Positions 496-60,508 of a DNA stretch of 64,000 nucleotides are shown piece after piece (within the stretch, counting starts at the first letter, position 1; every line of letters starts with the position of its first letter). The translations under genes were made by a program, and so were the position numbers. The notes beneath the pieces are model-generated. The model did not search any database and was not told the DNA's origin. It saw only the letters and a list, made by a program, of their open reading frames with translations. This stretch comes from a virus (Duplodnaviria > Caudoviricetes), in IMG/VR virus record IMGVR_UViG_3300027740_000003, positions 128,001-192,000 of that record; one strand, 5' to 3'.

Positions 496-719
496 TGTCA
501 AAAACAGACTATCTTCAATACACAGGAATTGTTAAAGAGTCCCGAGGAAATGGAAATTTCCTTGTTTTAATAGATGAGCTGGGAAGAGAAATCTCCTGTA
601 CATTATCAGGGAAAATTAGAAAGAACACTATAAGAATTTTGGATGGAGATAAAGTTTCTGTTGATGTCTCTGTTTATGATATGAACAAAGGAAGAATAAC
701 TTTCAGGCATAAAATATGA
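495..719 (+). CDS. infA: translation initiation factor IF-1
   Basis: S1/OB-fold signature GIVKESRGNGNFLV...LSGKIRKNTIRILDGDKVSVDVSVYDMNKGRITFRHK. Confidence 0.95.
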   Translation: MSKTDYLQYTGIVKESRGNGNFLVLIDELGREISCTLSGKIRKNTIRILDGDKVSVDVSVYDMNKGRITFRHKI

Positions 720-949
720 TTGTTCATCTTGCCCTGTTTCCTGATTCAAAAACACAAGTAAGAAATATTCTCTGCAACAATAGAGAATATACTTTTGACC
801 TAGAAACAACTCAAATTTACGGCGATATGGGGTTTTATGTTGGAATAAATAAAATTGACAATTCTAAAATATTTTATGCCTACAACGAAGGTAGAGTAAG
901 TTGTAAAGAATGTTTAGACAGCCTGATGATAAAAGATATAATAGAATGA
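716..949 (+). CDS. small Cys/His protein with IKDIIE C-terminal tag
   Basis: ends CKECLDSLMIKDIIE; ATGA overlaps on both sides. Confidence 0.8.
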   Translation: MIVHLALFPDSKTQVRNILCNNREYTFDLETTQIYGDMGFYVGINKIDNSKIFYAYNEGRVSCKECLDSLMIKDIIE

Positions 950-1179
950 CAGATTGCGATTTTGAAGATGGTTTGTATTATTTTACTGAACGTGATTGCT
1001 TCGGATTTGGTCCAGGAGTTTATAAACTTAAACTTAAATATCAAGGTGCCGTTTATAAATATAGTAAAGAAGATATGGTTTCCTGGTCTGATGTTAATCA
1101 TTATATAAATTTGTTAAAAACTGGGAAAATACAAAAATTAACAAATGATGAATTAATGATAAAGGATATAATAGAATGA
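946..1179 (+). CDS. small hypothetical protein with IKDIIE tag
   Basis: start re-assigned to ATG overlapping upstream TGA; ends LTNDELMIKDIIE. Confidence 0.8.
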   Translation: MTDCDFEDGLYYFTERDCFGFGPGVYKLKLKYQGAVYKYSKEDMVSWSDVNHYINLLKTGKIQKLTNDELMIKDIIE

Positions 1180-1610
1180 ACAATACAACTGTACATTACT
1201 GTTATTTTTGTTATGAAGACGTGTATCCATCGGAAACATTTTGTTTTTGTAATGGTGAATATTGCTCTGTTAATAATGCTGATTATAATTTACACATTTA
1301 TAATTTAATTTCTGAAGACGAGGAAAGGTATTATGTAGCCACAAATATTAAAGAAAATGTAAACTGCACAGCTTGTTTACAAAAATTAGCAGTAAAAGAT
1401 AAAATAACTATACATTATGCAAAAGACTATAATAATATGCCGGGAATTAAAATTTTATGTTCTAAAAAGGGGCATAATTATACAATGAATCTTTCGGGCC
1501 TCCCGCAGAATGTATTTTGTACAAGTGAAAACGATTATTCATACGTTATATATACCTTTGATGAGGACAAAATAACTTGTAAAGACTGTCTAGACAGATT
1601 AAAGGAATAA
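1176..1610 (+). CDS. Cys-rich protein with two H..C..CxxC units (paralogous to 716-949)
   Basis: TVHY...VNCTACL and TIHY...ITCKDCL repeats. Confidence 0.7.
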   Translation: MNNTTVHYCYFCYEDVYPSETFCFCNGEYCSVNNADYNLHIYNLISEDEERYYVATNIKENVNCTACLQKLAVKDKITIHYAKDYNNMPGIKILCSKKGHNYTMNLSGLPQNVFCTSENDYSYVIYTFDEDKITCKDCLDRLKE

Positions 1611-1613
1611 ACT

Positions 1614-2346: not shown

Positions 2347-3018
2347 TTGTGTATGTTAGAAGACCTTCCGGAAAAGATAAGTGATAGAGAAACAAAAATA
2401 CTGGATATCATTCAAAACCAAAAACATCGCGTTATTCATAATTGGTATCCAATAATTCTCCCAGAAGCCACCTACGTGGTGTCAGCTCAGCCTATCCGCA
2501 TCGATGGCGTTTTTATTACCCTATCCGCTAATGCTCAGACCCAGTTGGCCAAACTATGGGACTGTACCCTGCTAACAGCTAAGCTTGTTGATATCATTCA
2601 TCAACATGCTGATATCATTATAGAACCTTGTCCAAGACTAATCTCTTCAACCAAAAGCGCCATGATCCTACATAGCCAGAATGTAGATAAACAACTGGTA
2701 AAGTATGATACAACAAATAAGTTAGTATCTACCATAGGAAAGATGTGGATTAATAATTTATCTGCTCCGGCTGGCAAAGCAACTATATATGGTTGGCACA
2801 TAAATACCAACCAATTAAATTGGAAAGGAATTAAACTGTTTCCATCAGAAACATTACAGAACAGCAGAGTAATTCAGCCTGTTTCTACTACTCATAATAT
2901 GTTTCATAATGACTACTCTATGTGTCCTAGGTTTATATCTAGAATTATAGTAAAAGAAGAAATTTATAAAGCCGCGGATGTTATGTTTGATCCAGAATTT
3001 AAACACTTATTTTTCTAA
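2347..3018 (+). CDS. conserved hypothetical protein
   Basis: 223-aa ORF with TIYGWH...IQPVS..H...DYS motif. Confidence 0.6.
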   Translation: MCMLEDLPEKISDRETKILDIIQNQKHRVIHNWYPIILPEATYVVSAQPIRIDGVFITLSANAQTQLAKLWDCTLLTAKLVDIIHQHADIIIEPCPRLISSTKSAMILHSQNVDKQLVKYDTTNKLVSTIGKMWINNLSAPAGKATIYGWHINTNQLNWKGIKLFPSETLQNSRVIQPVSTTHNMFHNDYSMCPRFISRIIVKEEIYKAADVMFDPEFKHLFF

Positions 3019-6221: not shown

Positions 6222-6605
6222 TTATTCAATGATGTCTTTCACCATAATCTCATCATAAATTCTATCAACGTTTTGCGATAAATGTTTTAAATCTGGGTAA
6301 TATGCGTTAATTTTGTATCGTTCTTGTTCTAACCAATCTGGCATACAGTATTTAATATATTCTTTGGGGATATATTGGAGAAATTCATAATCAACTTTAT
6401 GATCTATCAATAATCCCATAGGATTGATTAATTCGTGTACTTGTATTAATCTGACACTATAATGTATATTAGGATTATTAACTGTTCCAATTACATAAAT
6501 AAATATTTCTTCAAGAAATTTATAATCAATATTGTCGGGCCAATTTGTTATTTTTGGACAGTTATCATATATACATAACGAATTAGAATGTAGCAATAAA
6601 TACAT
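6222..6605 (-). CDS. family-A paralog (IDYKF/IPKE) with IKDIIE tag
   Basis: WPDNIDYKFL, IPKEY, ends IYDEIMVKDIIE. Confidence 0.85.
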   Translation of the reverse strand: MYLLLHSNSLCIYDNCPKITNWPDNIDYKFLEEIFIYVIGTVNNPNIHYSVRLIQVHELINPMGLLIDHKVDYEFLQYIPKEYIKYCMPDWLEQERYKINAYYPDLKHLSQNVDRIYDEIMVKDIIE

Positions 6606-7016
6606 TTATTCTATGATGTCCTTTATCATCAATTCGTCATATATTTTATCTAAATTATCTTTTAAATATTGTAGCCTTTCTAAAATAGTTATATTTATAG
6701 AATTAGAAAGTATCAATTTTGGCAAAATATATTCAAAGAAATCTTTTGGAATTCTTTCTATTGTTTCATAATATATTTTATTATTATAGTCGTTAAAGTT
6801 CATTACGTTGCTCAAACGAATATATTTCATGAACAAATCTTGTGGTTTCCAAACTTCAAAATGTTTTTGATTTAAATCAAACAAATCAATGGTTCCAATA
6901 ATATCAATTTCTCCATATTTCAAATTTGAGATGAATTTATAATCAAGACCATCAGGCCAATCCAAAATTAGCGTTATATTAGGTCTGTAATCTAAAATTT
7001 TAGCTAGCAATTTCAT
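6606..7016 (-). CDS. family-A paralog with IKDIIE tag
   Basis: WPDGLDYKF, IPKDF, ends IYDELMIKDIIE. Confidence 0.85.
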   Translation of the reverse strand: MKLLAKILDYRPNITLILDWPDGLDYKFISNLKYGEIDIIGTIDLFDLNQKHFEVWKPQDLFMKYIRLSNVMNFNDYNNKIYYETIERIPKDFFEYILPKLILSNSINITILERLQYLKDNLDKIYDELMIKDIIE

Positions 7017-7019
7017 GTT

Positions 7020-7394
7020 TTATTCTATGATGTCTTTTATCATCAACTCATCGTATATTATGTCTATATTATCTTCGATATACTTGATCTCATTTTTCCA
7101 AAATGATTCTTTTATTTTATCATTTTTCCAGACATTTATTAAATATAACAAAACCTCTTTTGGAACATGTACATATATTCGTGCCATAGTGAAATCATAA
7201 ACATTAAATAATTCGTGTAATTCTACTATTTTAATATATTTTGGACAGGTATAAGCTAGAGATAATTCTGCTATTATATCTAGTTTATAGTTTAACCATT
7301 TATAATTAATTTTTAACTCATCTGGATAATGTAAAATCATATAATAATCTTCATCATCGTAATCTCCGTCTGTTTTTTTGTATAGCAATAACAT
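7020..7394 (-). CDS. family-A paralog with IKDIIE tag
   Basis: INYKWL, VPKEV, ends IYDELMIKDIIE. Confidence 0.85.
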   Translation of the reverse strand: MLLLYKKTDGDYDDEDYYMILHYPDELKINYKWLNYKLDIIAELSLAYTCPKYIKIVELHELFNVYDFTMARIYVHVPKEVLLYLINVWKNDKIKESFWKNEIKYIEDNIDIIYDELMIKDIIE

Positions 7395-7789
7395 TATTCA
7401 ATTATGTCCTTTATCATCAATTCGTCAGGAGTAAATATTTCTTTTTGTATGTAGTCGCCAGCATAAATTTTTGCATTATTAAATAAACAATAGTTTCCAT
7501 GAGACATTTCTGATTTATAACTATCTTCTATTTTACAAAAGAAGAAGATATTTGCAAATTTTCTATAATCTTTATTATAATATTTTATTATGGCGAATTG
7601 TGAATGATATGATTCAGATTCCAAATATAAAAATGGAATAAAAATATCATACCCGTTATGTCTTCCGAAAATTCTATCTACAGGATTTTCAATTCCAACA
7701 CTGTAAATGTCCTGATAAGTTCTATTTTTAGAAACACTAATTTCTTTGCAATAGCCAATGGTTTCGTTATTTGTTTTTAGATATATCAT
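7394..7789 (-). CDS. hypothetical protein (N-terminus reminiscent of tail-tube proteins) with IKDIIE tag
   Basis: IGYCKEISVSKNRTYQDIYSVG..NPVD; ends DELMIKDIIE. Confidence 0.75.
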   Translation of the reverse strand: MIYLKTNNETIGYCKEISVSKNRTYQDIYSVGIENPVDRIFGRHNGYDIFIPFLYLESESYHSQFAIIKYYNKDYRKFANIFFFCKIEDSYKSEMSHGNYCLFNNAKIYAGDYIQKEIFTPDELMIKDIIE

Positions 7790-7797: not shown

Positions 7798-8217
7798 TTA
7801 TTCTATGATATCCTTTATCATCAATTCGTCATAGGCTTTATCTAAATTTTCTTCAAAAAATTTTACTAATTCAGAACTCCATTCTTTTTTCCATTCACCA
7901 ACAATGAATTTGAGAACTTCTTTTGGGATTCTTTTTAAATTTTTCAGATTTATTTCAAATTTATTACCATTAGACACAGAATGACTTGCAAAAATCGAAG
8001 GATGATAAAATTGTGATAAATTTTTCAAACAACAACTGTTATGTTGTATTGTTTCTAAATCTAGCATTTCTTCGGGAACAATTCCAATAATAGAATGATA
8101 CAGATCGTTAAGAAACGAAAAATTGGTTATAAACGGTGGTGTTTTTATTAAAACTATATTTCCTATATCTAAATTTTCTTCTTTTAGAATAACAATCATT
8201 TTATTGTATTTCTCCAA
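7798..8217 (-). CDS. family-A paralog with IKDIIE tag
   Basis: NFSFL..IIGIV, IPKEV, ends AYDELMIKDIIE. Confidence 0.85.
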   Translation of the reverse strand: MEKYNKMIVILKEENLDIGNIVLIKTPPFITNFSFLNDLYHSIIGIVPEEMLDLETIQHNSCCLKNLSQFYHPSIFASHSVSNGNKFEINLKNLKRIPKEVLKFIVGEWKKEWSSELVKFFEENLDKAYDELMIKDIIE

Positions 8218-8791
8218 ATTCTTCTAACAACATCATTTCTAGAACAAATGAATGGCCCATAGATCTATCCGGATTATTAATTACATCTTCAATACTCATT
8301 CCCATTGCTTTCCTGTTGTATCCGTCATAACACCATAACATTATTCTTTTTTCTTTTTCATATAATTCACATAATTGTTTAAATGCATTTGTGGGTTTAA
8401 TAACTTCTTTATATACTGGAATATAAATTTCTCTTCTAGCTTCTATTTTTCCTAATAACCTTCCGTCCCACCACAAACCCTCAGGAACGGCTCCCTTGCC
8501 CCTAGGGTACCTGATAGCCGCCTTGAGTTGAAAACCGTTCCTGGCCCATTCTACCCAGTGGGAATTAGGTGTTCCATCTTGTCCGAGGTGGTCTTGGTAA
8601 ACCTTGCTGTACTGCCAACAATTTTCTATATTACATGCGGTTTCGGAGGGAGCACCAAGGTAAAGGCCACATGGGCCATTAAGGAATGGGGAAAGACCTT
8701 TTCCAAAAGAAGTAGAATGAGAGGTTGTATTAACAAAGAATGGCGAAGATGCTTTTCCTGGGCATTCCTGTGGACCAACAACCGTTATCAT
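8201..8791 (-). CDS. DUF6939-like (possible NADAR-fold) protein
   Basis: LSPF..GP, ENCWQYSKVY, WDG..LG.IEAR..IYIP.Y. Confidence 0.55.
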   Translation of the reverse strand: MITVVGPQECPGKASSPFFVNTTSHSTSFGKGLSPFLNGPCGLYLGAPSETACNIENCWQYSKVYQDHLGQDGTPNSHWVEWARNGFQLKAAIRYPRGKGAVPEGLWWDGRLLGKIEARREIYIPVYKEVIKPTNAFKQLCELYEKEKRIMLWCYDGYNRKAMGMSIEDVINNPDRSMGHSFVLEMMLLEEFGEIQ

Positions 8792-9039
8792 TCTATAATG
8801 TCCTTTATTATAAGATCGTCTTTTGTCAATTCTTCTATACAGTTTTCATTTATTAATTTTTCTATATCATAATTAGTATAGAAACTATTCGTGGAATACC
8901 AAACATTTCCAACTTTACATTCAAAAATATATTTTTTAAACCAATAATTATAAACACATCTGCACGTTTTATGTTTTTCAAATATACCAATAGGAATTAA
9001 AGGCATATTACACAAAAAATATTTTCCATTATAACTCAT
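8788..9039 (-). CDS. small protein with IKDIIE tag
   Basis: ends LTKDDLIIKDIIE. Confidence 0.8.
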   Translation of the reverse strand: MSYNGKYFLCNMPLIPIGIFEKHKTCRCVYNYWFKKYIFECKVGNVWYSTNSFYTNYDIEKLINENCIEELTKDDLIIKDIIE

Positions 9040-9362
9040 TCTATAATGTCCTTTATCATTAACTCATCTTCTGTTAGACATAATATATTGCAAAAATCGG
9101 GACCACATTTGTTTATCAAATTATGATTTGAAGAAGCGTTAGATGTTAATGTCTCTCCACATTTTCTACAACAAAAATACCACATAATTGTTTTATTTCC
9201 ATTTTCCAAAGAATATATAAAATTAAAATCATGTTGTTTTAACAACATATATGTGGTATAGTCTTTTTCTGACAACATCGTTTTGTTGTATCTGTCCCAC
9301 CAATTACGTGGTTTAAGGATATTTTTTATTTCTTTTGTTGAACAATCGTTTATTGTTCTCAT
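9036..9362 (-). CDS. Zn-ribbon-like protein with IKDIIE tag
   Basis: HDF..CCRKCG; ends LTEDELMIKDIIE. Confidence 0.8.
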   Translation of the reverse strand: MRTINDCSTKEIKNILKPRNWWDRYNKTMLSEKDYTTYMLLKQHDFNFIYSLENGNKTIMWYFCCRKCGETLTSNASSNHNLINKCGPDFCNILCLTEDELMIKDIIE

Positions 9363-9769
9363 TCAATGATATCCCTTATCATCATATTGTCATACAAAGA
9401 ATCTAATTCTTGTTCAAACGAAAGAACCACTTGAAGATCTTTTTTACAAATCTCTTTCCAATTTTTTATTACACATTTTATAAATTCTTTTGGAATACAC
9501 TCCAGCATTTGATATAATAATTTTTCTGCCAATTCATTGCCACGTTTATACTCTGCGTAATAATTAAATATAAAATTACATCTATCATATACTGAAAATA
9601 TTTTTATTTCTTTAGGAAGCTCACCATCAAACACAAAGCATCTTCCTGGCAATATTAATCCTTCATCTATTAAATATTCATTATTTAGAAATTTATAATC
9701 TATATTGATATTATCTGGATAATTTATAAAACAATACGTTCCAATTTCTACAGAAGTTATTAGAATCAT
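9359..9769 (-). CDS. family-A paralog with IRDIIE tag
   Basis: YPDNINIDYKFL, IPKEF, ends LYDNMMIRDIIE. Confidence 0.85.
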   Translation of the reverse strand: MILITSVEIGTYCFINYPDNINIDYKFLNNEYLIDEGLILPGRCFVFDGELPKEIKIFSVYDRCNFIFNYYAEYKRGNELAEKLLYQMLECIPKEFIKCVIKNWKEICKKDLQVVLSFEQELDSLYDNMMIRDIIE

Positions 9770-10146
9770 TCAATGATATCCTTTATCATAAGGTTATCAT
9801 ATATATAATCTAATTTTTGTTCAAATTCGGCAAGAATATTCAAATCAAAATTTCCCGGATATTCTTTCCATTTTAATATTAACCATTTAACAAATTCTTT
9901 CGGAACACCATTTAAATAATAGAATAAAGTTTTTTCATCATATATTGATGCATAAATTATTTTAAACATGTCTTCTAATCTAAATTTAGGCACATGGTCA
10001 TCAATTATTGAATTGTTATGAATTTTTCCTATTATTTCTCCTATTGAAATATTGGAATCGTTTAAAAAAGAATAATCAATATAAAATTCGTCAGAGTTTT
10101 CAACGAAGAATATCTCCCCGACAGTTCCTTTGCAAATATAAATCAT
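9766..10146 (-). CDS. family-A paralog with IKDIIE tag
   Basis: IDYSFL, VPKEF, ends IYDNLMIKDIIE. Confidence 0.85.
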   Translation of the reverse strand: MIYICKGTVGEIFFVENSDEFYIDYSFLNDSNISIGEIIGKIHNNSIIDDHVPKFRLEDMFKIIYASIYDEKTLFYYLNGVPKEFVKWLILKWKEYPGNFDLNILAEFEQKLDYIYDNLMIKDIIE

Positions 10147-10445
10147 TCAATAATGTCCTTGATTGTTTTTTCTTCTGGAGTTAACCAATGATCATAACCG
10201 ATTCTTCCGAAACAAAGAATAATTTCTCGCCCAATTGCAAATATATGCATTTGATTATAATGCCATTGTCTGTTTTCATCTATTGATATTTCTCCTAGTT
10301 CGTCAACAAATGACAGCGCTTTATTTCTATAATCTTCTAGAACATTTTGATTACAGAATTCTTCATACCAACTATAATTAAATATAATATCTTGTGCGGC
10401 GTATAGCCTTGTTTTTACTAAAGGGTCTACATTAGCCAACGACAT
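10143..10445 (-). CDS. hypothetical protein with IKDIIE tag
   Basis: ends LTPEEKTIKDIIE. Confidence 0.8.
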   Translation of the reverse strand: MSLANVDPLVKTRLYAAQDIIFNYSWYEEFCNQNVLEDYRNKALSFVDELGEISIDENRQWHYNQMHIFAIGREIILCFGRIGYDHWLTPEEKTIKDIIE

Positions 10446-10520: not shown

Positions 10521-10991
10521 TCATTTTATGTCCCGTATTTCTCTTTTTAAATTATATATAAAAAAGCAATTATTACATAGACACCTATCCCACCCTTTAT
10601 GATTTCTTAATTCCCCAGCAATACCACAATCTTCACAAGTGTTTAAAGATTTGTTTGCCGTTTGTTTAATTATTTCAACAATACGATCCCTGGCAATATT
10701 TCTACCAATAATAATAACATCAATATCAAAAGCTTCATTCCTATCGCGTTTAAAACCATAATAAATTCTCAGTTCTCCAAATTTTTCTTTTATTTGCAAC
10801 ATAGAAATGTTATAACCGTCTTTTTCTAAATCCCCCATATTTTCATATATTTTTTCTGACATGTCCCAAATTAAATCAAACCAACCATTTCCATGTTCAA
10901 AATGAAACCACTCAGGTTTCATCATAGGAGAATTTGGCTTATATAATTTTGGGAATGTTTGTGTAAGTTTTGTTTCTAACTCTGGTTTCAT
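10521..10991 (-). CDS. conserved phage protein with C-terminal Zn ribbon
   Basis: GNGWFDLI, QIKEKFGELRIY, CEDCG..GW.RCLC..C. Confidence 0.8.
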   Translation of the reverse strand: MKPELETKLTQTFPKLYKPNSPMMKPEWFHFEHGNGWFDLIWDMSEKIYENMGDLEKDGYNISMLQIKEKFGELRIYYGFKRDRNEAFDIDVIIIGRNIARDRIVEIIKQTANKSLNTCEDCGIAGELRNHKGWDRCLCNNCFFIYNLKREIRDIK

Positions 10992-11242
10992 TCTATTATA
11001 TCCTTAATTATTCTTTCATCAAAACTTAAACAAGTATCGTATACACCGTATCTAATAACTTCTTGTTGATATTCTTCGAAATCTTTTTTCTTCCAAAATC
11101 CTGGAATATAATATATGTGTCTTTTTAACGGATCAAATTCTTTTAAACAAGACGGAGTTGTTGCTTTTAATTCACAATTAATACATTTCCATAACGAAGT
11201 GGTCATTTTTCTTTCTACTAGAATCCATTCGTGTTGTTTCAT
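10988..11242 (-). CDS. H-CxxC-C zinc-finger family protein with IKDIIE tag
   Basis: MKQHEW..CINC..CLSFDERIIKDIIE; start moved to ATGA overlap. Confidence 0.8.
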   Translation of the reverse strand: MKQHEWILVERKMTTSLWKCINCELKATTPSCLKEFDPLKRHIYYIPGFWKKKDFEEYQQEVIRYGVYDTCLSFDERIIKDIIE

Positions 11243-11502
11243 TGAATAATATCTTTTATTCCTTGACAATCGGGACATAATAGTTTTGGAAATTTATCGA
11301 ATGACCACCCACAATTACTACAATCATATTTATTAATTTCTCCTAACATCTTACAAGAAGAACATTTAACAACAATTGTAGAACAATTACAGTCTGAACA
11401 AACAGTTTTTGCAATGTGCCCTGTTTCATTTTTTACATAAATATATTTAGGTTCACCACAAACTTTTTTGTTGCAAGAATAACATTTAAAATATAGTATC
11501 AT
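11239..11502 (-). CDS. multi-CxxC protein with IKDIIQ tag
   Basis: five CxxC pairs; ends LCPDCQGIKDIIQ. Confidence 0.8.
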   Translation of the reverse strand: MILYFKCYSCNKKVCGEPKYIYVKNETGHIAKTVCSDCNCSTIVVKCSSCKMLGEINKYDCSNCGWSFDKFPKLLCPDCQGIKDIIQ

Positions 11503-11687
11503 TCGATTATATCTTTAACAATTGCACAGTCTGGACACAAATGTTTACAGGAAAATTTAAAAGGAAAGCACCTATCATTAAAAATGATCCAACCTTTAGG
11601 GAAATCACCATTTAAAGATTTATAGATTACTGCTTTAAAACAAGAATCACATGTTATTTGATATTCTTTTATTTCAGACAACATCAA
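11499..11687 (-). CDS. CxxC zinc ribbon with VKDIIE tag
   Basis: CDSC..PKGW..HLCPDCAIVKDIIE. Confidence 0.8.
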   Translation of the reverse strand: MMLSEIKEYQITCDSCFKAVIYKSLNGDFPKGWIIFNDRCFPFKFSCKHLCPDCAIVKDIIE

Positions 11688-12153: not shown

Positions 12154-12387
12154 TCATTCTATTATATTTTTTATAGCCAAACAATCCGGGCACAAATGTA
12201 TATAATCACAACCTGTACTAAAAAAGGCCCATCCATATGGAAGCTCTATAAGTTCATTAAAATCTGCCACAACAGCCCCGGTGTTTTCTCTTTTTTTGCA
12301 GGACGAACAAGATATCTTAATTAGATAACGTTTTTCACACCTAAAAATAGAACCATTAATTGATTTTGTGTAATATCTAGCGTTCAT
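12154..12387 (-). CDS. CxxC zinc ribbon with IKNIIE tag
   Basis: CSSC..LPYGW..HLCPDCLAIKNIIE; paralog of 11499-11687. Confidence 0.8.
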   Translation of the reverse strand: MNARYYTKSINGSIFRCEKRYLIKISCSSCKKRENTGAVVADFNELIELPYGWAFFSTGCDYIHLCPDCLAIKNIIE

Positions 12388-14959: not shown

Positions 14960-14984
14960 GAAATTATGTCAAAATAGTATTAGA

Positions 14985-15056
14985 AGCTAGAGGGAGAATC
15001 GAACTCACCAAACAACTGTTTTGCAGACAGTGCCATTTACCAATTTGGTATCTAGC
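14985..15056 (-). tRNA. tRNA-Cys(GCA)
   Basis: ACTGT-CTGCAAA-ACAGT anticodon arm, GTTCGATT T-loop, GCTAGA/TCTAGC acceptor; one T-stem mismatch, no CCA. Confidence 0.75.
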
Positions 15057-15148
15057 CTTAATTGATTTTGGTGCGCCATCCCGGTGATGCTCCGAGGTAC
15101 TCTGGTTGGAGGCCAAATATTCTACTGTTGAATTAATGGCGCATATTA

Positions 15149-16486: not shown

Positions 16487-16503
16487 AACATAATGCGGTT
16501 ATA

Positions 16504-17160: not shown

Positions 17161-17275
17161 TCACCCTCCAGCCGTATATATCTATGCTGGATTATAGTCT
17201 GGGCATTGAACTTTAATATAATAATAATAATAATAGAATTGTGGGGAATATGTGGTGTAAACTTTTGTTTACATA

Positions 17276-43978: not shown

Positions 43979-44730
43979 TCTATTATATCTTTTATCATTA
44001 AATTGTCTATTATTTCTTCGGCAAATTCTTTCCAATCTGGACATAATAATATTATGTTTATATTATATCCAGATTGTTCTATTGCAGTTTTTTGAACTTC
44101 TTTAGGAGGGTTCTTTATAAATTGAATAGAATATGCATCTTGTTTAACTGCTTCTAATTTTATTTCTTTAGAAGGATTTTTTATAAATTGAATAGAATAT
44201 GCATTTTGTTTAATCGCTACTAATTGTACTTCTTTAGAAGGATTCTTTATAAATTGAATAGAATATGCATTTTCTTTAACAGCTGCTAGTTTTATTTCTT
44301 TAGAAGGGTTATTTATATATTGAATAGAATTTCCATTTTGTTTAACTGCTTCTAATTGTACTTCTTTAGAAGGGTTCTTTATAAACCTAATACGAAATCC
44401 GTCTTGTTTAACAGTCTCTAATTTTGTATTTTTTGTGGGTTTATTTATAAATTGAATATAACTTCCGTCTCTTTTAACCACTACCAGTTGTACTTTTTCT
44501 GTAGGATTTTCTATATACTTAATTGAAATTGGGTCTAGTTTAACAGCTTTTAATTGTATTTCTTCTGAAGGATTTTTTATATACCTAATTGAATATGAAT
44601 CTTGGTTAATAGTTTCTAACTGTACTTCCCTAGAAGGATTTTTTATATATTTAATGTAATCACTGTCAAAATCAATAAGTTTTCCTAAATGAGATGATAA
44701 TAAATCCTCAACTTTTTTAGCATGCGACAT
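43975..44730 (-). CDS. DUF4116-like 22-aa repeat protein with IKDIIE tag (intact)
   Basis: ~9 repeats SKEVQLEAVKQ..SIQ[FY]IKNP; ends CPDWKEFAEEIIDNLMIKDIIE. Confidence 0.9.
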   Translation of the reverse strand: MSHAKKVEDLLSSHLGKLIDFDSDYIKYIKNPSREVQLETINQDSYSIRYIKNPSEEIQLKAVKLDPISIKYIENPTEKVQLVVVKRDGSYIQFINKPTKNTKLETVKQDGFRIRFIKNPSKEVQLEAVKQNGNSIQYINNPSKEIKLAAVKENAYSIQFIKNPSKEVQLVAIKQNAYSIQFIKNPSKEIKLEAVKQDAYSIQFIKNPPKEVQKTAIEQSGYNINIILLCPDWKEFAEEIIDNLMIKDIIE

Positions 44731-46735: not shown

Positions 46736-47293
46736 TCACCATTTGAACCTTGGTATACCAGGAACAACCTTTATATTAGTTGCTTTAATATGCTGGTGAT
46801 ATTTAGCAACAATTTTTTTCTGATCCATTGTTAAAGCATACCAAAATGGATGCTTGGCAGGATCTTCTGGATTGGTCAATATGCCTTTATATTTTTCCTG
46901 ATGTGTAGTAAGATTATATGCCCACTCTTGTTCTCTTTGTTCATCAAGCATATTTACATTAGATAGTTTATGTTCATGTCCGCTGATTTCTGAATATATT
47001 TCATTCACTCGCCCATTAAACATATTTCCAAATGGCAAAATATCAGCATAAAGTTGAAACCTTAACCAAGGTCTAGTTATTTCCAGATCAATTAAATTTT
47101 GACTGCCAACAACAAGCAGGTTTTTATCCTCTATTTCAATTATATCATCTTCATCATCTTCAAAATAATAAACTTCAGCGGTTAATCCGGTTTTATCACA
47201 TAATAGTTTCAAACCATCGCATGTGGCCGCGAATCCATTTGTTCCAAATGCTTTATTCTGTTCTATAAGCCATTCAACAAGTTTATTCATCAT
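46736..47293 (-). CDS. hypothetical protein
   Basis: 185-aa ORF. Confidence 0.7.
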   Translation of the reverse strand: MMNKLVEWLIEQNKAFGTNGFAATCDGLKLLCDKTGLTAEVYYFEDDEDDIIEIEDKNLLVVGSQNLIDLEITRPWLRFQLYADILPFGNMFNGRVNEIYSEISGHEHKLSNVNMLDEQREQEWAYNLTTHQEKYKGILTNPEDPAKHPFWYALTMDQKKIVAKYHQHIKATNIKVVPGIPRFKW

Positions 47294-48140
47294 TCTATTA
47301 TGTCCCTTATTATTACATTATTATATATTGTTTCTAACGTTTTTGTATCTAACCTGGATAGATTTATAGTCCCAATAACATTTAAATTATATTTACTTGC
47401 AACAACGGCTTGTTGTTGTACTTCTTTTGAAGGGTTTTTTATAAATTTAATAGAAGACGGGTTTTGTTTTACAGCTGCTAGTTGAATTTCTTTTGAAGGG
47501 CTCTTTATACTTACAATAGATAGACCGAATTGTTTAACAGCTGCTAATTGGACTTCTTTAGATGGATTTTTTATATATTGAAGTGCATATCCATTTTGTT
47601 TAACAGCTAGTAATTTCATTTTTTCTGAAGGATTACGTATGTCTTCAATACAAAGTGAACATTGTTTAATAGCTGCTAGTTTTATTTTTTCGGAAGGTTT
47701 TTTTATATATTGAATAGAAAAACCGTTTTGTTTAACAGCCTCCAATTGAAGTTCTTTAGAAGGATTATGTATAAATTGAATAGAATGCCCGTTTTCTTCA
47801 ATCGCTGCTAATTTAACTTCTTTTGAGGGATTTTTTATATATTTAATAGAACATCCGTTTTGTTTAACAGCTACTAGTTTTATTTTTTCGGAAGGATTTT
47901 TATATAACATATAGATCCTCCGTTTTGTTTAACTGCTTCTAATTTTAATTCTTCTGAGGGGTTCTTTATAAACTTAATAGAATATCCGTTTTGTTTAACA
48001 GCTGCTAATTGCATTTCTTCAGTAGGATTATTAATATTTCGAATATTATGTAAATCTTGTTTAACAAGATTTAATCTTTTAGAATATAAAAAATTATCTA
48101 ATTTAGAGATAATGTCCGATTTAACAAGTTCATTTGTCAT
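47290..48140 (-). pseudogene. DUF4116-like repeat protein, frameshifted at A5 (47897-47901)
   Basis: adding one A restores ..SICYIKNPSEKIK..; ends LETIYNNVIIRDIIE. Confidence 0.8.
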
Positions 48141-48658
48141 TCTATTATGTCTTTTATTATTACGTTATTATATATTGTTTCTAGATTTTCTTTGCTCAAT
48201 TTTGACAAATCGACAAATACAATAACTTTTGGATCAAATTTACTAGCAATAATAGCTTCCATAACAATTTCTTCGGTTGCCCATCCTTTTTCATAATACA
48301 TATCCAAATTAAATGGATGAAGTTTAATTGCCTCCAATTTCATTTCTTCACTAGGACCAACCGGATCTTTAATCCAATATATTGCATTATAGGCCCTTTT
48401 AATTGCTTCTAATTGAAGCCATTTTGGAGGATTCATTACACTATGAATAGAACAAGGCTCTTGTTTAACTGCTTCTAACATAACCTCGTTTGAAGGATTT
48501 TGTATCCACTGTAGGGAATTGCCCCAAACTTTAACAGCTTCCAATTTCATTTCCTCAGATGGATTTTTTATTTTTGAGAAATAAAGGCCAGGATTATTTT
48601 TAATTAGCTCCAATTTTGCATTGTACAACATTTCGTCTATTTTATCTGCAATGTCCAT
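48137..48658 (-). CDS. DUF4116-like repeat protein with IKDIIE tag
   Basis: IKNPSEEMKLEA repeats; ends LETIYNNVIIKDIIE. Confidence 0.85.
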   Translation of the reverse strand: MDIADKIDEMLYNAKLELIKNNPGLYFSKIKNPSEEMKLEAVKVWGNSLQWIQNPSNEVMLEAVKQEPCSIHSVMNPPKWLQLEAIKRAYNAIYWIKDPVGPSEEMKLEAIKLHPFNLDMYYEKGWATEEIVMEAIIASKFDPKVIVFVDLSKLSKENLETIYNNVIIKDIIE

Positions 48659-49683
48659 TATGCCACCAAAACCTTGAATTGTTTAACAATTGTTTCTTCA
48701 ACAGAGTTAAATAAATCATCAGACAGTCTGGTTAATTCTCTTCTCTTCTCCAGATCTCTTTTTAGTAGTTTTGGAAATGCAGCTGCTCCCCATCTGGCCC
48801 CAACCAATGCCGCATACATTGCCCCTATAGTATCTGTGTCCCCTCCCTGTTGTATTAGTTCACATAAATTAGGAAAAGCTTGCCGGCGATTCTTTGTGTT
48901 CAAAAACACAGCGGTCGCCGTTATCCATGATTCCGTTGCTTTGCCATTGGTTCCAATTTGCTCTGCAATAATTTCTATTGTTGGCAACTTAACCGCTATT
49001 TTCAATTTATCAGCAAACCTAGTTTCCCCAAATAAACTTTCTTCAATTCTAGCAAGCTCTTCAATTAATATTTTTTTATTACGAATGCCGTTTATGGACA
49101 TTGCTATCAAAACAGATTGAAGCACTCCGGCCGTAATACCTATTTCATGATGTGTAATCTTTCCAACAGATACAATAGAGTTAATTGTGTTATAAAAAGT
49201 TTTATGATCCTTCATAGAACTTAAATAACACCCCAAGGGAGCTGCCTTCATTGCAACACCATTTCCGTAGCCCAAACTAGTGTCAGCGGCCCGGGTCCAA
49301 GGAACACCCTCGCTAAGCCGCTTTACAGCCTCTCTGGTGGACTTTCCCCATCCCCTAAGCTCCTCCTCCTGGTACACCTTCAAACTGAATCTAGCAATGT
49401 CCTGAGGGCATATATAACCAAGGTTTGTTATGGACAGCAATATTGGCTTCATTAGTTGTGTATCATCTGTCCATTGTCCTGAGCCACGAACATTCTGATG
49501 AATACTTTGTGGACGATTAACCTTGCCAGGATCAACATATTGATATATTACAGGATATTGTTTAATAATATCTTTTTTAGACATACATTCAAAAGGGGCT
49601 CCAAGAGCATCACCAATTGCTGTTCCTAAAATAGCGCCACGATATCGAGATTTTACTGTGATTGGATTTCTAGTAGAGGTCAT
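48658..49683 (-). CDS. ADP-ribosylglycohydrolase (ARH/DraG family)
   Basis: GAILGTAIGDALG, WTDDTQL, GNG.AM..AP, GGDTDTIGAM.AAL.GA. Confidence 0.92.
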   Translation of the reverse strand: MTSTRNPITVKSRYRGAILGTAIGDALGAPFECMSKKDIIKQYPVIYQYVDPGKVNRPQSIHQNVRGSGQWTDDTQLMKPILLSITNLGYICPQDIARFSLKVYQEEELRGWGKSTREAVKRLSEGVPWTRAADTSLGYGNGVAMKAAPLGCYLSSMKDHKTFYNTINSIVSVGKITHHEIGITAGVLQSVLIAMSINGIRNKKILIEELARIEESLFGETRFADKLKIAVKLPTIEIIAEQIGTNGKATESWITATAVFLNTKNRRQAFPNLCELIQQGGDTDTIGAMYAALVGARWGAAAFPKLLKRDLEKRRELTRLSDDLFNSVEETIVKQFKVLVA

Positions 49684-51228: not shown

Positions 51229-51745
51229 TTCTAAAAACTCCTTTTCTTATCCATCCAAAATCATGAACAATTTCCTCAATCTCGACAACTGACCCATCAT
51301 TTTGTCCAATTATCTTTCTAGGACATTTCTCAAATGCTTTTAACATCCTAACACAGGTTTCTAAAGGAACATTGTGTACATTTGATTTAAAACTATCCTC
51401 GGCAGTCATTCCTGTTATTGAATGACAAATTACTTTATATCCAGCTTCTTGCCCTAATAAAGCATATACTTTAAGGTCTTTTAATTTAATATTCGTATTA
51501 TCTATTATGATTAATTCTTTTTCTACTTCAATTGCTTTAATACAATTATATTTACAAGATCCGTGAGCTTTGCTTAACAAAGCAATATCGAATTTATAAT
51601 TCTCTGGAATTTGTTCTTTACCAAAGTACCAATAATGATCTGCACTACATACTGTAGCTTCTTGACCATATTGTTTTTCTAACTCTTTTATTATTGTGGT
51701 TTTTCCTGCTCCTGGAAGACCACGTAGTATTATTAGTGTTTTCAT
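51188..51745 (-). CDS. AAA_33 P-loop kinase (N4BP2/PNK-like)
   Basis: ILRGLPGAGKTT, CSADHY, IIIDNTN, NVHNVP. Confidence 0.85.
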   Translation of the reverse strand: MKTLIILRGLPGAGKTTIIKELEKQYGQEATVCSADHYWYFGKEQIPENYKFDIALLSKAHGSCKYNCIKAIEVEKELIIIDNTNIKLKDLKVYALLGQEAGYKVICHSITGMTAEDSFKSNVHNVPLETCVRMLKAFEKCPRKIIGQNDGSVVEIEEIVHDFGWIRKGVFRNGHFGTKNSKKNR

Positions 51746-52194
51746 TCGATTATGTCTTTAATCATCAATTGATCTTTTATATATGGCCAAATGTCTTTAG
51801 GATATTGCGTTTCTAAATAACACGTTGATGTTCCGGAAATTCTTCTTAAGAATTTTGCAGATATGAGCGTCTTTCTATATTCTAGAGGAAGATTTTTGTT
51901 TTGTATTAATATTGAATCTGATACTATATATTCTGATACTATATATGTGGACATCGCGGCATTTACTAATAAATTTTCAGTTGCTTGTTTAGATTTTACT
52001 TTTCTAAGCAACCTGAGGGCTGTTGATTTATTCATTTTTTTTAAACATAGTTTTTCTAATTGAGATTCGGACAAATCATTTCTATGAGAAAGCCATTGAA
52101 TGGCTATTGTATCACCAAGATCAATTACTACATCAAAAGCTTTAGATATATCTTCTAGTGTGAAATTTGTTGATTGTTGTTTCTTTTTAATCAT
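51742..52194 (-). CDS. helical protein with IKDIIE tag
   Basis: ends IKDQLMIKDIIE. Confidence 0.8.
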   Translation of the reverse strand: MIKKKQQSTNFTLEDISKAFDVVIDLGDTIAIQWLSHRNDLSESQLEKLCLKKMNKSTALRLLRKVKSKQATENLLVNAAMSTYIVSEYIVSDSILIQNKNLPLEYRKTLISAKFLRRISGTSTCYLETQYPKDIWPYIKDQLMIKDIIE

Positions 52195-52391
52195 TCGATT
52201 ATATCCTTAATCATCATTTCATCACATGATAATATTTCAACATAGAGATTGTAAAATAATGTCGGTTTTTTCATATGAATAAATAAGTCGCCAAAAGCTT
52301 CGAATCCACATTTTTTGCATTTAAATCTATAGGTAGAAATTTTCTCAAAATCATGGGAGTTTAATTTTTCACCAAGATTATTTATACTCAT
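52191..52391 (-). CDS. H-CxxC-C zinc-finger protein with IKDIIE tag
   Basis: SHDF..FKCKKCG..LSCDEMMIKDIIE. Confidence 0.85.
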   Translation of the reverse strand: MSINNLGEKLNSHDFEKISTYRFKCKKCGFEAFGDLFIHMKKPTLFYNLYVEILSCDEMMIKDIIE

Positions 52392-52624
52392 TCTATTATA
52401 TTCTTTATAATAAATTCGTCGCAAGAAAGAATATTATAAATGTCTCTTAAATAAGATAATCCGTAGCTGTCTAATCTATTAAACTTCATTCGAATTTTAT
52501 ATCCACATTTTTTACACTTATAAACAACGCCATTATATCCAAAATTATCTAAAGGAAAAAACTCATGTGTTTTAAGTTTTTCATCGGCAATTTTAAACAG
52601 ATCTGGAAAGCTATTTATGTCCAT
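52388..52624 (-). CDS. H-CxxC-C zinc-finger protein with IKNIIE tag
   Basis: THEF..YKCKKCG..LSCDEFIIKNIIE. Confidence 0.85.
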   Translation of the reverse strand: MDINSFPDLFKIADEKLKTHEFFPLDNFGYNGVVYKCKKCGYKIRMKFNRLDSYGLSYLRDIYNILSCDEFIIKNIIE

Positions 52625-57359: not shown

Positions 57360-58239
57360 TATCTAGCCTTTCAGATAAAGAAAAAACTATATCTTCTAAT
57401 TTTTGAATTCTACTATTAAGTTCTTCAATTGAATTTTCTATAATAATTTCACTAACAGTAATTTTCTTTTGTAATTTTCCGACTTTCTTCAGTTTCTTTA
57501 ACCTATTTTCTACATCTAGTAGAGATTTCTGATTAAATATTTCCGCTTTTGTATAATATATATCAAATAAATTATTTAGAATTGCTTGGAATCTATGGTG
57601 CCCATCAATAAGTTTAAGTTTTTTATTGTTATCTTTAATAACAATTAGGTTGTTTAATTTTTTATCCACCATCAGCTCAGAGATTTTGTTTATATCTGGA
57701 TTGTGATTAGTAATAACTAATTTGTTTATTAAATCTTTTAAAGTTATAGAATATATTTTTACATCACAAATATTTTCATGATCTTTTAATAATTGTCCAT
57801 GTTCTAAAGTAGATGCTAGTTTTAATATTTCAGTATTTCTTTTTCCAACCAACTGTTTGGCAAAATTAATAAACTCATTTGCTTTTGAACAGTTTAATTT
57901 TATGCTATCAATCTCTTCTCCATAATATCCTTCGATAATATTTATGTCAAAACTATCACTGCTAATAGTATTTTTAATATATTTTTCAACAGCATATAAA
58001 ATATTTTCAGCCGTTTTTGAAGTAGAATCAATTTCGATAAAAAGCGATACGTCTTTTGCTATTTCTCTGTAATCTATATTTTCCACTCTAGCATTTAGAA
58101 TTTTTTTACATCGACAACAACCATCGCTGTTAATACATTCTGAAGTGCAACCGGTTGTATCATATTCACAATCACCATAATAATATTTACAATTATCAAA
58201 AAGATGAATTTTTGGAACGTTATTTTTTAACTTTTTCAT
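57334..58239 (-). CDS. ParB/Srx N-terminal domain-containing protein
   Basis: LIVI......LIDGHHRFQA; Cys-rich N-terminus. Confidence 0.75.
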   Translation of the reverse strand: MKKLKNNVPKIHLFDNCKYYYGDCEYDTTGCTSECINSDGCCRCKKILNARVENIDYREIAKDVSLFIEIDSTSKTAENILYAVEKYIKNTISSDSFDINIIEGYYGEEIDSIKLNCSKANEFINFAKQLVGKRNTEILKLASTLEHGQLLKDHENICDVKIYSITLKDLINKLVITNHNPDINKISELMVDKKLNNLIVIKDNNKKLKLIDGHHRFQAILNNLFDIYYTKAEIFNQKSLLDVENRLKKLKKVGKLQKKITVSEIIIENSIEELNSRIQKLEDIVFSLSERLDNVEGRDYH

Positions 58240-59270
58240 AGTATTATATCATGTGGTTTAGATTCGACAATACCAGCATTACTTATCTCAACAAATTCTG
58301 GATTGCGCTTTAGATCTTCTAGATTACTTACTCCTTGATAAGAACATCCGGATCTAATTCCGTCCATCAACCTTGCAATAACTATTTTAACATCTCCTCG
58401 ATAAGGAACATAACCAGAAACACCTTCTATATTGGCAGATTTATGTGTAGACGATCCTGCATACTGTTTGTATATTTGTCCATTTATTATAATCTTATCT
58501 CCGGGGGCTTGGTCTGTTCCAGCCAAAAGATTTCCTAACATAACTGCATCTGCAATAGATAATGCTTTAACACAGTCTCCTGCGTTTTTTATACCACCAT
58601 CTGCTATAATTTTAACATGTGAAAAATAATTTTGTTCCAAAGCCTCTCTACAATCATCCAAAGAAGTAAGTGATCCGCAACCATTACCCGTTTCTATTCT
58701 GGTAGAACAGCACGACCCCCCTCCGACGCCAACTTTTATTACATCCGCCCCGGCAATAGCTAAAAATAAAGCACCTTCACCTGTTGCAACATTACCGGCA
58801 ATAATTAAAACGTCAGGCATATGTTTCCTAACAAAATTAATCATGTCCGATGTATTTTTATGATGCCCATGAGCAACATCAATACAAACAATTTTTACCC
58901 ATTCTTTTAGTGGCAAATATTTTTCAACAAGATATTGTTTTTCTTGATCGGTTGTTCCAACTGACACACCAACGTAATTTACATATTGATCATGTTTTAT
59001 ACTGGCAGATAACCATTTAATAGCTGCAAGATAATCTTGATCCCTGTTATTATTAAACCTATGTAAAATAGCTAATCCGCCAAGTTCTGCCATTGACCGA
59101 GCAAGCTCAGGTCCCGTCACAAACTTCATGTTGGCAGATACAATAGGAATATCTAAAACAATTCCCCGTCCCAGATCTGCCTTTGTTGATACCTCTGATC
59201 TGTGCTGAATTTCTGAATATTTCGGCACAAGTAATAAGTCGTCATACGAATAGCTTTTTCTAATATTCAT
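58236..59270 (-). CDS. guaB: IMP dehydrogenase / GMP reductase (CBS-less)
   Basis: SYDDLLLVP, IDVAHGH, GNVAT, KVGVGGGSCCSTR, IIADGGI, GIRSG.SY.G. Confidence 0.88.
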   Translation of the reverse strand: MNIRKSYSYDDLLLVPKYSEIQHRSEVSTKADLGRGIVLDIPIVSANMKFVTGPELARSMAELGGLAILHRFNNNRDQDYLAAIKWLSASIKHDQYVNYVGVSVGTTDQEKQYLVEKYLPLKEWVKIVCIDVAHGHHKNTSDMINFVRKHMPDVLIIAGNVATGEGALFLAIAGADVIKVGVGGGSCCSTRIETGNGCGSLTSLDDCREALEQNYFSHVKIIADGGIKNAGDCVKALSIADAVMLGNLLAGTDQAPGDKIIINGQIYKQYAGSSTHKSANIEGVSGYVPYRGDVKIVIARLMDGIRSGCSYQGVSNLEDLKRNPEFVEISNAGIVESKPHDIIL

Positions 59271-59330
59271 TCCCAACTCCAACAAGTTGTTGTTGGTACA
59301 GTGTGCGTGTCTCGACAGAAACACCAGATT

Positions 59331-59663
59331 CTAATAATAAACCTCGCCATCACAATTGTGTTTTGGTGCTTCAATATCATCTCTAGGAATTATAGTCTTC
59401 AAAACCAAAGATACAGCTTTTTCTAAAGTAGGAACGTTCACTACTTTCTTATCTTTATAATAAATAGAATTACTGCCATTGTCTTTTTCGAAGAAAACTT
59501 CATACCCAAAATCATTTTGCTCAATAATAAAGCCGTCTTTTATAAAATTAATTGAAGAGTATTTGTCTCTATATCCGCCACCATATATTAATTCACTCAA
59601 ATCACAATACCTACAAATTAATTTGGCATCCTGTAATGTTTTTACCGCCTCTTGTGGTGTCAT
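59331..59663 (-). CDS. hypothetical protein
   Basis: 110-aa ORF, ATGA coupled. Confidence 0.65.
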   Translation of the reverse strand: MTPQEAVKTLQDAKLICRYCDLSELIYGGGYRDKYSSINFIKDGFIIEQNDFGYEVFFEKDNGSNSIYYKDKKVVNVPTLEKAVSLVLKTIIPRDDIEAPKHNCDGEVYY

Positions 59664-60508
59664 TCTATGATATCCTTTATTATTAAATTATCTACTATTT
59701 CATCTGCAAATTCATTTCTATCAGAACATAAACATATTATGTCCATATCATATTTTGATTGTTCTATTGCAATTTTTTGTAATTCTTTAGAAGGATTCTT
59801 TATATAAGATATAGAATATGCATCTTGTTTAACTGCTGCTAATTGTACTTCTTCGGAAGGATTTTTTATATAAGATATAGAAACCCCTATATTTTTAACT
59901 GCTGCTAATTTAACTTCTTTTGAGGGATTCTTTATAAATTGAATAGAAAGCCCGTTTTCTTTAACGGCTGCTAATTTCATTTCTTTAGAAGGATTCTTTA
60001 TATATTGAATAGAGTTTCCGTTTTGTTTAACGGCTGCTAATTTCATTTCTTTAGAAGAATTCTTTATATATCGAATAGAAGTTCCAATTTGTTTAACCGC
60101 TGCTAACTGCATTTCTTTAGAAGAATTCTTTATATATCGAATAGAAGTTCCAATTTGTTTAACCGCTGCTAATTGTGCTTCTTCGGAAGGATTCTTTATA
60201 TATTGAATAGAAGTTCCAATTTGTTTAACCGCTGCTAATTGTGCTTCTTCGGAAGGATTTTTTATATAACAAATAGAATAGCTATTTTGTTTAACAGCTG
60301 CTAATTGCATTTCTTTAGTGGGGTTTTTTATATAACAAATAGAGGTTCCGTCTTGTTTAATAGCTACTAACTGCATTTCTTTAGTGGGTTTTTTTATATA
60401 TTTAAGATTGCTTCCAGCTAGTTTAACTGCCTTTAAAGCAAATTCCTCATCGTCATAATCAAATTTAAGATGTTTAATGCATAATTTATTTAATTTATCT
60501 ATTGACAT
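59660..60508 (-). CDS. DUF4116-like 22-aa repeat protein with IKDIIE tag (intact)
   Basis: ~10 repeats incl. near-identical 66-bp units; ends EIVDNLIIKDIIE. Confidence 0.9.
   Translation of the reverse strand: MSIDKLNKLCIKHLKFDYDDEEFALKAVKLAGSNLKYIKKPTKEMQLVAIKQDGTSICYIKNPTKEMQLAAVKQNSYSICYIKNPSEEAQLAAVKQIGTSIQYIKNPSEEAQLAAVKQIGTSIRYIKNSSKEMQLAAVKQIGTSIRYIKNSSKEMKLAAVKQNGNSIQYIKNPSKEMKLAAVKENGLSIQFIKNPSKEVKLAAVKNIGVSISYIKNPSEEVQLAAVKQDAYSISYIKNPSKELQKIAIEQSKYDMDIICLCSDRNEFADEIVDNLIIKDIIE

Follow-up and report, generated by a model that had tools for sequence, protein, structure and literature searches.

The 64,000-nucleotide stretch analyzed here (the window) spans bases 128001–192000 of a single 435,004-bp contig of 35% G+C, IMG/VR record IMGVR_UViG_3300027740_000003 (hereafter G000), and 40 of its reading frames end, directly before the stop codon, in variants of one short peptide, IKDIIE. 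With moderate confidence, we consider this ending, IK[D/N]IIE-COOH, to be a portable address or docking tag that one highly conserved partner recognizes along with the free end of the chain. G000 is an uncultivated tailed jumbo phage encoding a portal, a tail sheath, a DnaE-type polymerase, a TubZ-like tubulin, ClpP, a protein with a trigger-factor N-domain and many tRNAs, including a CUA suppressor; the closest cultured phage is Bacillus phage G, with a portal identity of 32%. The sequencing runs containing the window sequence were labelled as soil and groundwater metagenomes. Coordinates are window positions unless marked 'genome'.

With the pattern [IV][KR][DN][IL]I[EQL]-stop, and counting open reading frames (ORFs) of at least 40 amino acids (aa), the tagged frames of the window comprise 38 ORFs (3 on the plus strand and 35 on the minus strand) and two short remnants. 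All tag positions listed in the original prediction were recovered, including 22169 and 23128, which had been found by hand, except that no tagged frame ends at 34605, where the nearest tagged gene is 34354–34629. Across all six frames of the G000 genome, 114 terminal matches compare with only 7 internal ones, and amino-acid composition predicts 0.004 terminal matches by chance among ~720 genes. The register is exact, as had been claimed for the extreme C-terminus: the IKDII core is followed by one residue and a stop codon 124 times, by a stop codon directly four times, and by two residues and a stop codon once. The final residue of these 124 tags is E in 92, Q in 16, L in 6, T in 4, I in 3, K in 2 and Y in 1. 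Conservation extends further upstream, with L-[S/T]-x-[D/E]-[D/E]-h-h (h, hydrophobic) usually preceding I-K-D-I-I-E in a motif of 13 residues; judged from its sequence, this motif appears to begin with a helix N-cap and to continue as an amphipathic helix that has a single hydrophobic face and the E-K-E spacing of salt bridges. The tag is directly encoded in ~15–17% of G000 genes, about one in six. The tagged proteins are small (median 96 aa, exceeding 250 aa only among DUF4116 repeat proteins), and their genes form tightly coupled arrays between conserved non-structural genes, with a single tag in the genome region 195–340 kb, where the virion genes are located.

The conservation is that of a peptide. 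Over the last seven codons, entropy per nucleotide is ~0–0.5 bit at codon positions 1 and 2 and 0.9–1.5 bit at position 3, and synonymous codons are used freely within the tag (AAG 52 and AAA 51 times, GAT 74 and GAC 31 times, with ATA, ATT and ATC all occurring). Because third positions vary while first and second positions are fixed, selection acts on the amino acids of the tag, as had been proposed from its synonymous variation, and the same period-three signal rules out a DNA element such as a promoter or recombination site.

To compare the proteins that carry the tag, we clustered them by BLAST after removal of their last 14 residues. This yielded 65 body groups, including 15 DUF4116 proteins, 13 with a His...CxxC...Cys pattern, two groups of 5 (one being the IDYKF/IPKE family), several pairs and ~50 singletons. 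Fewer than 65 of these bodies are independent, however, because many of the singletons align with the H...CxxC...C pattern of the zinc family. The claim of at least five unrelated families is fair, with the caveat that BLAST clusters overstate independence, since one zinc-finger superfamily pattern recurs among the singletons. DUF4116 (PF13475) membership of the repeat-type bodies is supported by Pfam matches above the gathering score, and the 15 genes cluster together. An AlphaFold model of the zinc protein 26162–26413 is all-beta, with five strands and a predicted local distance difference test (pLDDT) value of 76, and places the tag in a helix at residues 73–82 (pLDDT ~55–67). Its best Foldseek matches are to WRKY domains but are weak (E ~0.6, template-modelling score 0.4–0.5; a WRKY/GCM1-like zinc finger was considered). 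The model of one DUF4116 protein is all-alpha (pLDDT 92), and there the tag ends the helix 89–106, with confidence falling to 74. In both models, the tag is therefore the lower-confidence end of a terminal helix. These models establish that the tag sits on truly different folds, namely an all-alpha DUF4116 solenoid and an all-beta zinc protein, besides many ORFans, in agreement with the expectation of unrelated bodies. Recognizable enzymes do not carry it, as originally noted: those of the window are untagged, and a Pfam scan of 20 tagged bodies matched no enzyme family.

The different folds bear directly on the possibility, which we consider improbable, that the tagged proteins constitute one old family in which the tag is simply the best-conserved structural helix and no signal at all. 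The pattern common to many singletons does mean that independent bodies are overestimated and, in the zinc family, L-S-C-D-E contains an invariant Cys that probably binds zinc and ties the tag helix to the body. Nevertheless, the all-beta and all-alpha models cannot be one fold, DUF4116 is an independent Pfam family known without the tag in other phages (for example, in gp45 of Salicola phage SCTP-2), the tag end has the lowest confidence in both models, and its position and register are conserved far beyond the need of a packing helix.

Each body family keeps its tag, because BLAST searches with the bodies alone gave 104 tagged and only 6 untagged matches in G000, the latter comprising four fragments from split DUF4116 genes, a short ORF that directly adjoins the tagged gene T116939_117169m, and a variant with G for D; in the relative G001 described below, both matches were tagged. 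Among the ~15 DUF4116-tag genes, four are broken into two overlapping frames, of which the 5′ piece lacks the tag and the 3′ piece bears it (22169–22704, 23965–24340, 47290–48140 and genome 116322–116540). These could be frameshifted pseudogenes, assembly errors in repeats or programmed frameshifts.

Exact-pattern scans of IMG/VR were used to establish how widely the tag is distributed. G001, a complete 458.7-kb relative syntenic with G000 (median identity of shared proteins, 45%), has 25 tags under the strict or 39 under the relaxed pattern, compared with 2 internal matches. Another relative is represented by G004, a 131-kb fragment (28% G+C) with 14–19 tags, nearly all of them IKNIIE, and a 28.7-kb fragment, G003, carries IKD, IKN and IKQ forms. 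The D-to-N change in nearly all G004 tags indicates that tags of one genome change together, as a shared reader predicts. The tagged genes themselves are mostly not conserved between G000 and G001 and are placed as insertions between conserved genes. K[D/N]IIE-stop is entirely absent from phage G and Salicola phage SCTP-2. When 185,579 bacterial and archaeal species, each represented by one genome, were scanned for the pattern, there were 15 scattered single hits, which is the chance level, none in a plausible gene, and mimicry of a host protein C-terminus was rejected on these grounds. A profile search of 5.8 billion proteins retrieved 36 small metagenomic proteins, of which 35 end in IKDIIE or IRDIIE and one in IKDIIK.

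The tag also occurs in a very different phage. G002 (IMGVR_UViG_3300014205_000153) is a complete 36.9-kb myophage with direct terminal repeats and its own terminase, portal, capsid, sheath and tape-measure genes, and it carries two diverged DUF4116-like genes that both end in LMIKDIIE, encoded by different codons. Its capsid, portal and terminase have no BLAST match to those of G000, and no close relatives of G002 were found in IMG/VR. The genes common to both phages encode two tail-fibre proteins (64–67% identity; G000 region compared, genome 196837–201621), a lysin, a 232-aa ORFan, a RuvC-like resolvase and a metalloprotease. Given the shared tail fibres and the few other common genes, G000 and G002 very probably have the same host or closely related ones, and the sharing of the fibres, lysin and 232-aa ORFan suggests that very different phages of one host have exchanged genes.

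If the ending is a docking tag, IK[D/N]IIE would form the exposed final turns of an amphipathic helix at the C-terminus, and one conserved partner would recognize it together with the chain end, treating all tagged proteins as one class. The tagged genes look like binders, being zinc fingers, repeat solenoids and ORFans among small, non-enzymatic and fast-evolving accessory proteins. The most likely concrete mechanism, although a weakly held one because the tag resembles no known degron, is that it tethers the proteins to, or marks them for, an AAA+ unfoldase or Clp-type protease, which might serve the timed removal of early accessory proteins or the delivery of host proteins bound by them. 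We counted in favour of a Clp mechanism that the phage encodes ClpP but no ClpX/ClpA-type (AAA_2) unfoldase; no S41 tail-specific protease is encoded in G000 either. A host protein is the likeliest reader, just short of an even chance; a phage protein is possible but less likely, and the absence of any separate reader is the least likely of the three. The host is favoured because the tag is near-invariant across phages whose core proteins are only ~45% identical and is present in G002. If the tag is under selection in G002, the reader should be a host protein or the product of one of the few genes common to G000 and G002, none of which looks like a hub.

We examined several candidates for the reader. 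DUF4116 itself was excluded because G001, a complete genome with 25–39 tags, uses the tag without any DUF4116 protein detectable by phmmer, and none was detected in G003 or G004. The neighbours of tagged genes (the RuvC-like resolvase, the TubZ-like tubulin, a second ATPase and an RNA ligase) were rejected as adjacency is not conserved: G001 has kept the RuvC and TubZ neighbourhoods without the tagged genes, and adjacency is uninformative because tagged genes are insertions between core genes. The second ATPase is also present in tag-less phages. A YjoB/Cdc48-like AAA+ ATPase (genome 386265–387584, L073; a paralogue, genome 19975–21330, L091, lies next to tagged genes) and a protein with a trigger-factor ribosome-binding N-domain (genome 354067–355293, L076) occur in G000, G001 and G004 and are absent from phage G and G002. 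In related contigs, the YjoB/Cdc48-like ATPase gene lies between those of topoisomerase IA and ribosomal protein S21; one 61-kb related contig with an ATPase homologue (45% identity) has no tag in the 21 kb examined. The ClpP homologue (genome 410693–411244, L104; PF00574, E = 6e-54) is also encoded in G001, G004, phage G and SCTP-2. Its gene follows one for a DksA/TraR-type zinc finger and is itself followed by three untagged zinc-ribbon paralogues. The 232-aa ORFan of G000, G001 and G002 (2353–3018), with no Pfam or PHROG match and four close homologues only, was set aside; each of the three genomes has it close to the lysin, and it probably belongs to the lysis module.

Several observations weigh against a docking tag read by one partner. 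No reader emerged among the candidate proteins examined, that is, DUF4116, the gene neighbours, the ATPases, ClpP and the genes shared with G002. ClpP cannot be a tag-specific partner, being present in the tag-less phage G and SCTP-2 as well, and the tag, with its acidic rather than non-polar end, is unlike known Clp, Lon and FtsH degrons. Prediction of a complex between the AAA+ ATPase and a tagged zinc protein, both supplied as alignments, scored 0.00, which is evidence neither way. No bacterial genome in the 185,579-species scan has a real tagged gene that could be mimicked. The uniform endings of the metagenomic proteins are partly circular because the retrieval used the tag's own words, and a body-only homology search for untagged relatives, itself weak, gave 8 matches, 7 of them already known and the one new match tagged. 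Finally, G002 could have acquired its two DUF4116-like genes recently from a jumbo phage not yet sampled, in which case the argument for a host reader would fall away. Overall, the docking signal of the original prediction stands as far as selection on the peptide, the exact C-terminal position, the differing folds and the untagged enzymes are concerned, whereas the single hub and the description of the proteins as effectors go beyond what was demonstrated.

The principle of a short C-terminal peptide common to unrelated proteins and read by one hub is already known, although none of the systems compared here matches in sequence, scale or context. Poxvirus ankyrin/PRANC (F-box-like) adaptors are likewise a viral multigene family of accessory, fast-evolving and clustered genes, in which variable binder repeats are combined with one short conserved C-terminal module for a host hub; the PRANC module, however, is folded, ~30–50 aa long and binds eukaryotic Skp1, whereas here the tag comprises 6–13 residues, the host is a bacterium and the free chain end seems to matter. 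The XB peptide of SspB and the ssrA tag are also short peptides at the extreme C-terminus that are read by an AAA+ protease, as a tether and a degron, respectively, and the phage encodes ClpP. Yet ssrA ends in non-polar residues (LAA) and is added by transfer-messenger RNA, and XB is basic, whereas the IKDIIE tag is acidic, helical and encoded in each gene; rather than the non-polar last residues of an ssrA/ClpX degron, 92 of the 124 tags have E at the end and the net charge is acidic. The tails with which T4 gp43, gp33 and gp55 bind gp45, and those of T7 gp2.5 and gp4, similarly place a short acidic and hydrophobic C-terminus on unrelated proteins that meet at one hub. They are found on about three replication or transcription enzymes, whereas IKDIIE is found on >100 non-enzymatic ORFans, with the replication enzymes untagged and no recognizable enzyme tagged; the Pfam family DNA_pol3_beta (DnaN-type clamp) is absent from G000, a T4 gp45-type clamp not having been searched for.

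Encapsulin cargo-loading peptides and the T4 capsid-targeting sequence are portable terminal peptides that send unrelated cargo to one HK97-fold shell. They have other consensus sequences, the T4 signal is N-terminal and cleaved, and the tagged genes of G000 are not beside capsid genes; instead of cargo linked to its shell and a tag co-varying with it, we found one tag in the virion region and a tag retained in G002. Effector signals of Dot/Icm (type IVB) secretion systems, finally, also mark hundreds of unrelated proteins of one genome by a C-terminal signal in which Glu and hydrophobic residues abound, but that signal is loose, statistical and belongs to a bacterial secretion system, whereas IKDIIE is an invariant hexapeptide and no such machine was seen here. 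The literature searched contained no description of such a tag, in phages or otherwise, in line with the original statement that no phage system like this had been described; the string IKDIIE appeared only in an unrelated mpox epitope list. To our knowledge, an invariant hexapeptide on >100 proteins, ~15–17% of a phage's genes, has not been described. It would be categorically new only if the reader proves unprecedented.

The exact register could also reflect an action of the last residues within the ribosome at termination, slowing release or favouring re-initiation, perhaps together with phage translation proteins, for which release-factor-like, peptidyl-tRNA-hydrolase-like and trigger-factor-like proteins might be the helpers. 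Register to the stop codon exact to one residue, the enrichment of TGA, the trigger-factor N-domain protein, a release-factor-like ORF (genome 343013–343588) adjoining tagged genes, and S21, IF3 and deformylase genes in related contigs would all fit such a nascent-peptide signal. We nonetheless give it as little credence as a single ancestral family, because the motif has the features typical of a folded amphipathic helix (N-cap, salt bridges at i/i+4 and a single hydrophobic face), and in view of the helix predicted in two different bodies and the occurrence of all three stop codons after the tag. Known arrest peptides carry Pro- or Trp-type features, and the tag has none.

Binding of the tag to the procapsid interior, with the tagged proteins packaged and then ejected with the DNA, is unlikelier still. 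Precedent speaks for it, and many proteins would fit into a very large capsid, but the tagged genes lie in non-structural arrays away from the virion region, G002 has retained the tag with a capsid, portal and terminase that BLAST does not match to those of G000, and capsid proteins diverge (~45–69% identity) where the tag does not. The proposed role in import, packaging or ejection found no positive evidence and fits poorly with the tag in G002. Slightly less probable again is bundling of the tags with one another, gathering tagged proteins into mixed oligomers or a condensate: the short, stable helix does offer one continuous hydrophobic face (M/I, I, I, I), yet ten residues are short for a bundle, and self-association leaves unexplained why exactly one residue follows IKDII.

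The codons of the tag do more than encode the peptide. AAG accounts for 46–50% of Lys codons within the tag versus 25% genome-wide and GAA for 92% of Glu codons versus 73%, TGA is the stop codon of 61% of tagged genes versus 34–37% of untagged ones, and the stop codon overlaps the next start codon in ~64% of tagged genes (50% ATGA, 14% TAATG) versus 19% of untagged small genes (15% and 4%). Where the downstream start is coupled, Lys and Arg codons ending in G are more frequent (odds ratio 3.9, p = 0.0016). The arrays have the properties of translationally coupled operons, with ATGA or TAATG overlaps and a Shine-Dalgarno-like sequence within the upstream gene. The codons have been tuned secondarily, AAG-GAT supplying a Shine-Dalgarno-like AGGA and GAA-TGA the next ATG, through which the tagged genes chain into translationally coupled cassettes; this secondary effect, part of the original prediction, is borne out by the overlap and AAG statistics. 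Coupling is not the cause of the peptide's conservation, however, because about a quarter of the G000 tags (33/124) and half of those in G004 (10/19) have no overlapping start. That the last seven codons are kept for AAGGA, an A/U-rich spacer and the next ATG, the peptide being a by-product, is accordingly the least credible explanation: beyond the codon, stop and overlap biases, it can draw on a start-less 8-codon tag remnant that survives directly before a DUF4419 gene, but variation is strictly period three, AAA is as frequent as AAG, Ile codons alone are used where any A/U-rich codon would serve the RNA, and conservation continues upstream through the 13-residue helix motif. The remnant (39596–39622, minus strand; LTIRDIIQ-stop, no start codon), whose TGA overlaps the ATG of the DUF4419 gene 38367–39599, looks like the relic of a deleted tagged gene that still provides the ribosome-binding context of its neighbour. 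A sigma-70 promoter scan intended to time the tagged arrays gave only noise in this AT-rich DNA.

The tagged genes of the window lie on the minus strand, apart from 716–949 (77 aa, ending LMIKDIIE), 910–1179 (89 aa, ending LTNDELMIKDIIE) and 36085–36537 (150 aa, with a C-terminal zinc module). A first array consists of the IDYKF/IPKE genes 6222–6605 (127 aa, no Pfam match), 6606–7016 (136 aa) and 7020–7394 (124 aa), the BLAST singleton 7394–7789 (131 aa, no Pfam match) and the IDYKF-like 7798–8199 (133 aa). It is followed by 8788–9039 (83 aa), 9036–9362 (108 aa, H/CxxC zinc type), two further IDYKF/IPKE genes at 9359–9769 (136 aa, ending MIRDIIE) and 9766–10146 (126 aa), and the singleton 10143–10445 (100 aa). 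Next are 10988–11278 (96 aa), a metagenomic homologue of which (P0021) ends in IIRDIIE, and three genes for CPDC zinc ribbons with variant endings, 11239–11502 (87 aa, IKDIIQ), 11499–11684 (61 aa, VKDIIE) and 12154–12387 (77 aa, IKNIIE). Between 19 and 25 kb, the tag is found at 19781–20104 (107 aa, ending IKDLIE; 38% identical to a G001 homologue), in the 3′ frame (22169–22366) of a split DUF4116 gene whose 5′ part is ORF 22309–22704 in another frame, in a 21-codon remnant at 23128–23193 (ending MIRDIIL), at 23287–23538 (83 aa, IKDIIQ) and in a gene of the short DUF4116 type at 23965–24174 (69 aa).

Zinc-family genes of the H/CxxC/C type make up the arrays 26162–26413 (83 aa, the protein modelled above), 26410–26634 (74 aa), 26634–26918 (94 aa) and 26921–27157 (78 aa), and 34354–34629 (91 aa), 34727–34978 (83 aa), both ending IKNIIE, and 34975–35262 (95 aa). 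Further along are a zinc-type gene at 40749–41039 (96 aa, IKDLIL), 41409–41750 (113 aa, IKDIIQ; metagenomic homologue P0019) and 43688–44044 (118 aa). Proteins with DUF4116 repeats are encoded at 43975–44730 (251 aa), 47290–47910 (206 aa, IRDIIE) and 48137–48658 (173 aa; PF13475, E = 4.9e-7, 29.7 bits). The singleton 51742–52194 (150 aa) adjoins the zinc-family genes 52191–52391 (66 aa) and 52388–52624 (78 aa, IKNIIE), and the last tagged gene, 59660–60508 (282 aa), has about ten DUF4116 repeats, with PF13475 matching the window segment 59660–60553 in 4 stretches (E = 4e-25, 87.5 bits).

Interspersed with the tagged arrays are RNA-repair and ADP-ribose genes (15149–16486, 39829–40752, 48658–49683 and genome 424142–425359), which encode a haloacid dehalogenase (HAD) 'Swiss Army Knife' protein with a weak match to poly(ADP-ribose) polymerase-like proteins, a polynucleotide kinase-phosphatase, an ADP-ribosylglycohydrolase and a T4 Rnl1-type RNA ligase. 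ARAGORN identified twelve tRNA genes at 14983–34113, including one for the CUA-anticodon (amber suppressor) tRNA at 20687–20760 on the minus strand; of the three stop codons, TAG is used least (3% after tags, 9–15% elsewhere). A second, smaller C-terminal tag, F[L/I]VCA-stop, is found on nine mini-ORFs of 45–60 codons from stop to stop, of which 8 are in the window, five of them in tandem, and the other is at genome position 375521, with 2 internal matches genome-wide. The sites, all on the minus strand, are 17684–18377, 26034–26189, 27738–27911, 29787–29927 and 33238–33630, the last being a 130-aa ORF that ends in the variant FILCA. This tag is absent from G001–G004, and its hydrophobic ending is nearer to ssrA-like degrons than is IKDIIE.

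The tagged genes provide a clean case of a protein-level motif and a translational-coupling signal sharing one set of codons. A bolder proposal, which we offer tentatively and consider rather unlikely in its entirety, is that they form a library of >100 diversifying binders, each gripping a different host or defence target, with the tag plugging all of them into one host unfoldase, protease or other hub, as a bacterial-virus counterpart of the F-box/PRANC families; if so, the tag could be common to, and pass between, unrelated phages that infect one host. More generally, if one partner reads the tag, about a sixth of the 'hypothetical' genes of a huge phage would constitute one functional class, with a 13-residue peptide as the handle. 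This would open a route into how huge phages organize their accessory gene load and would provide a portable tag for that host.

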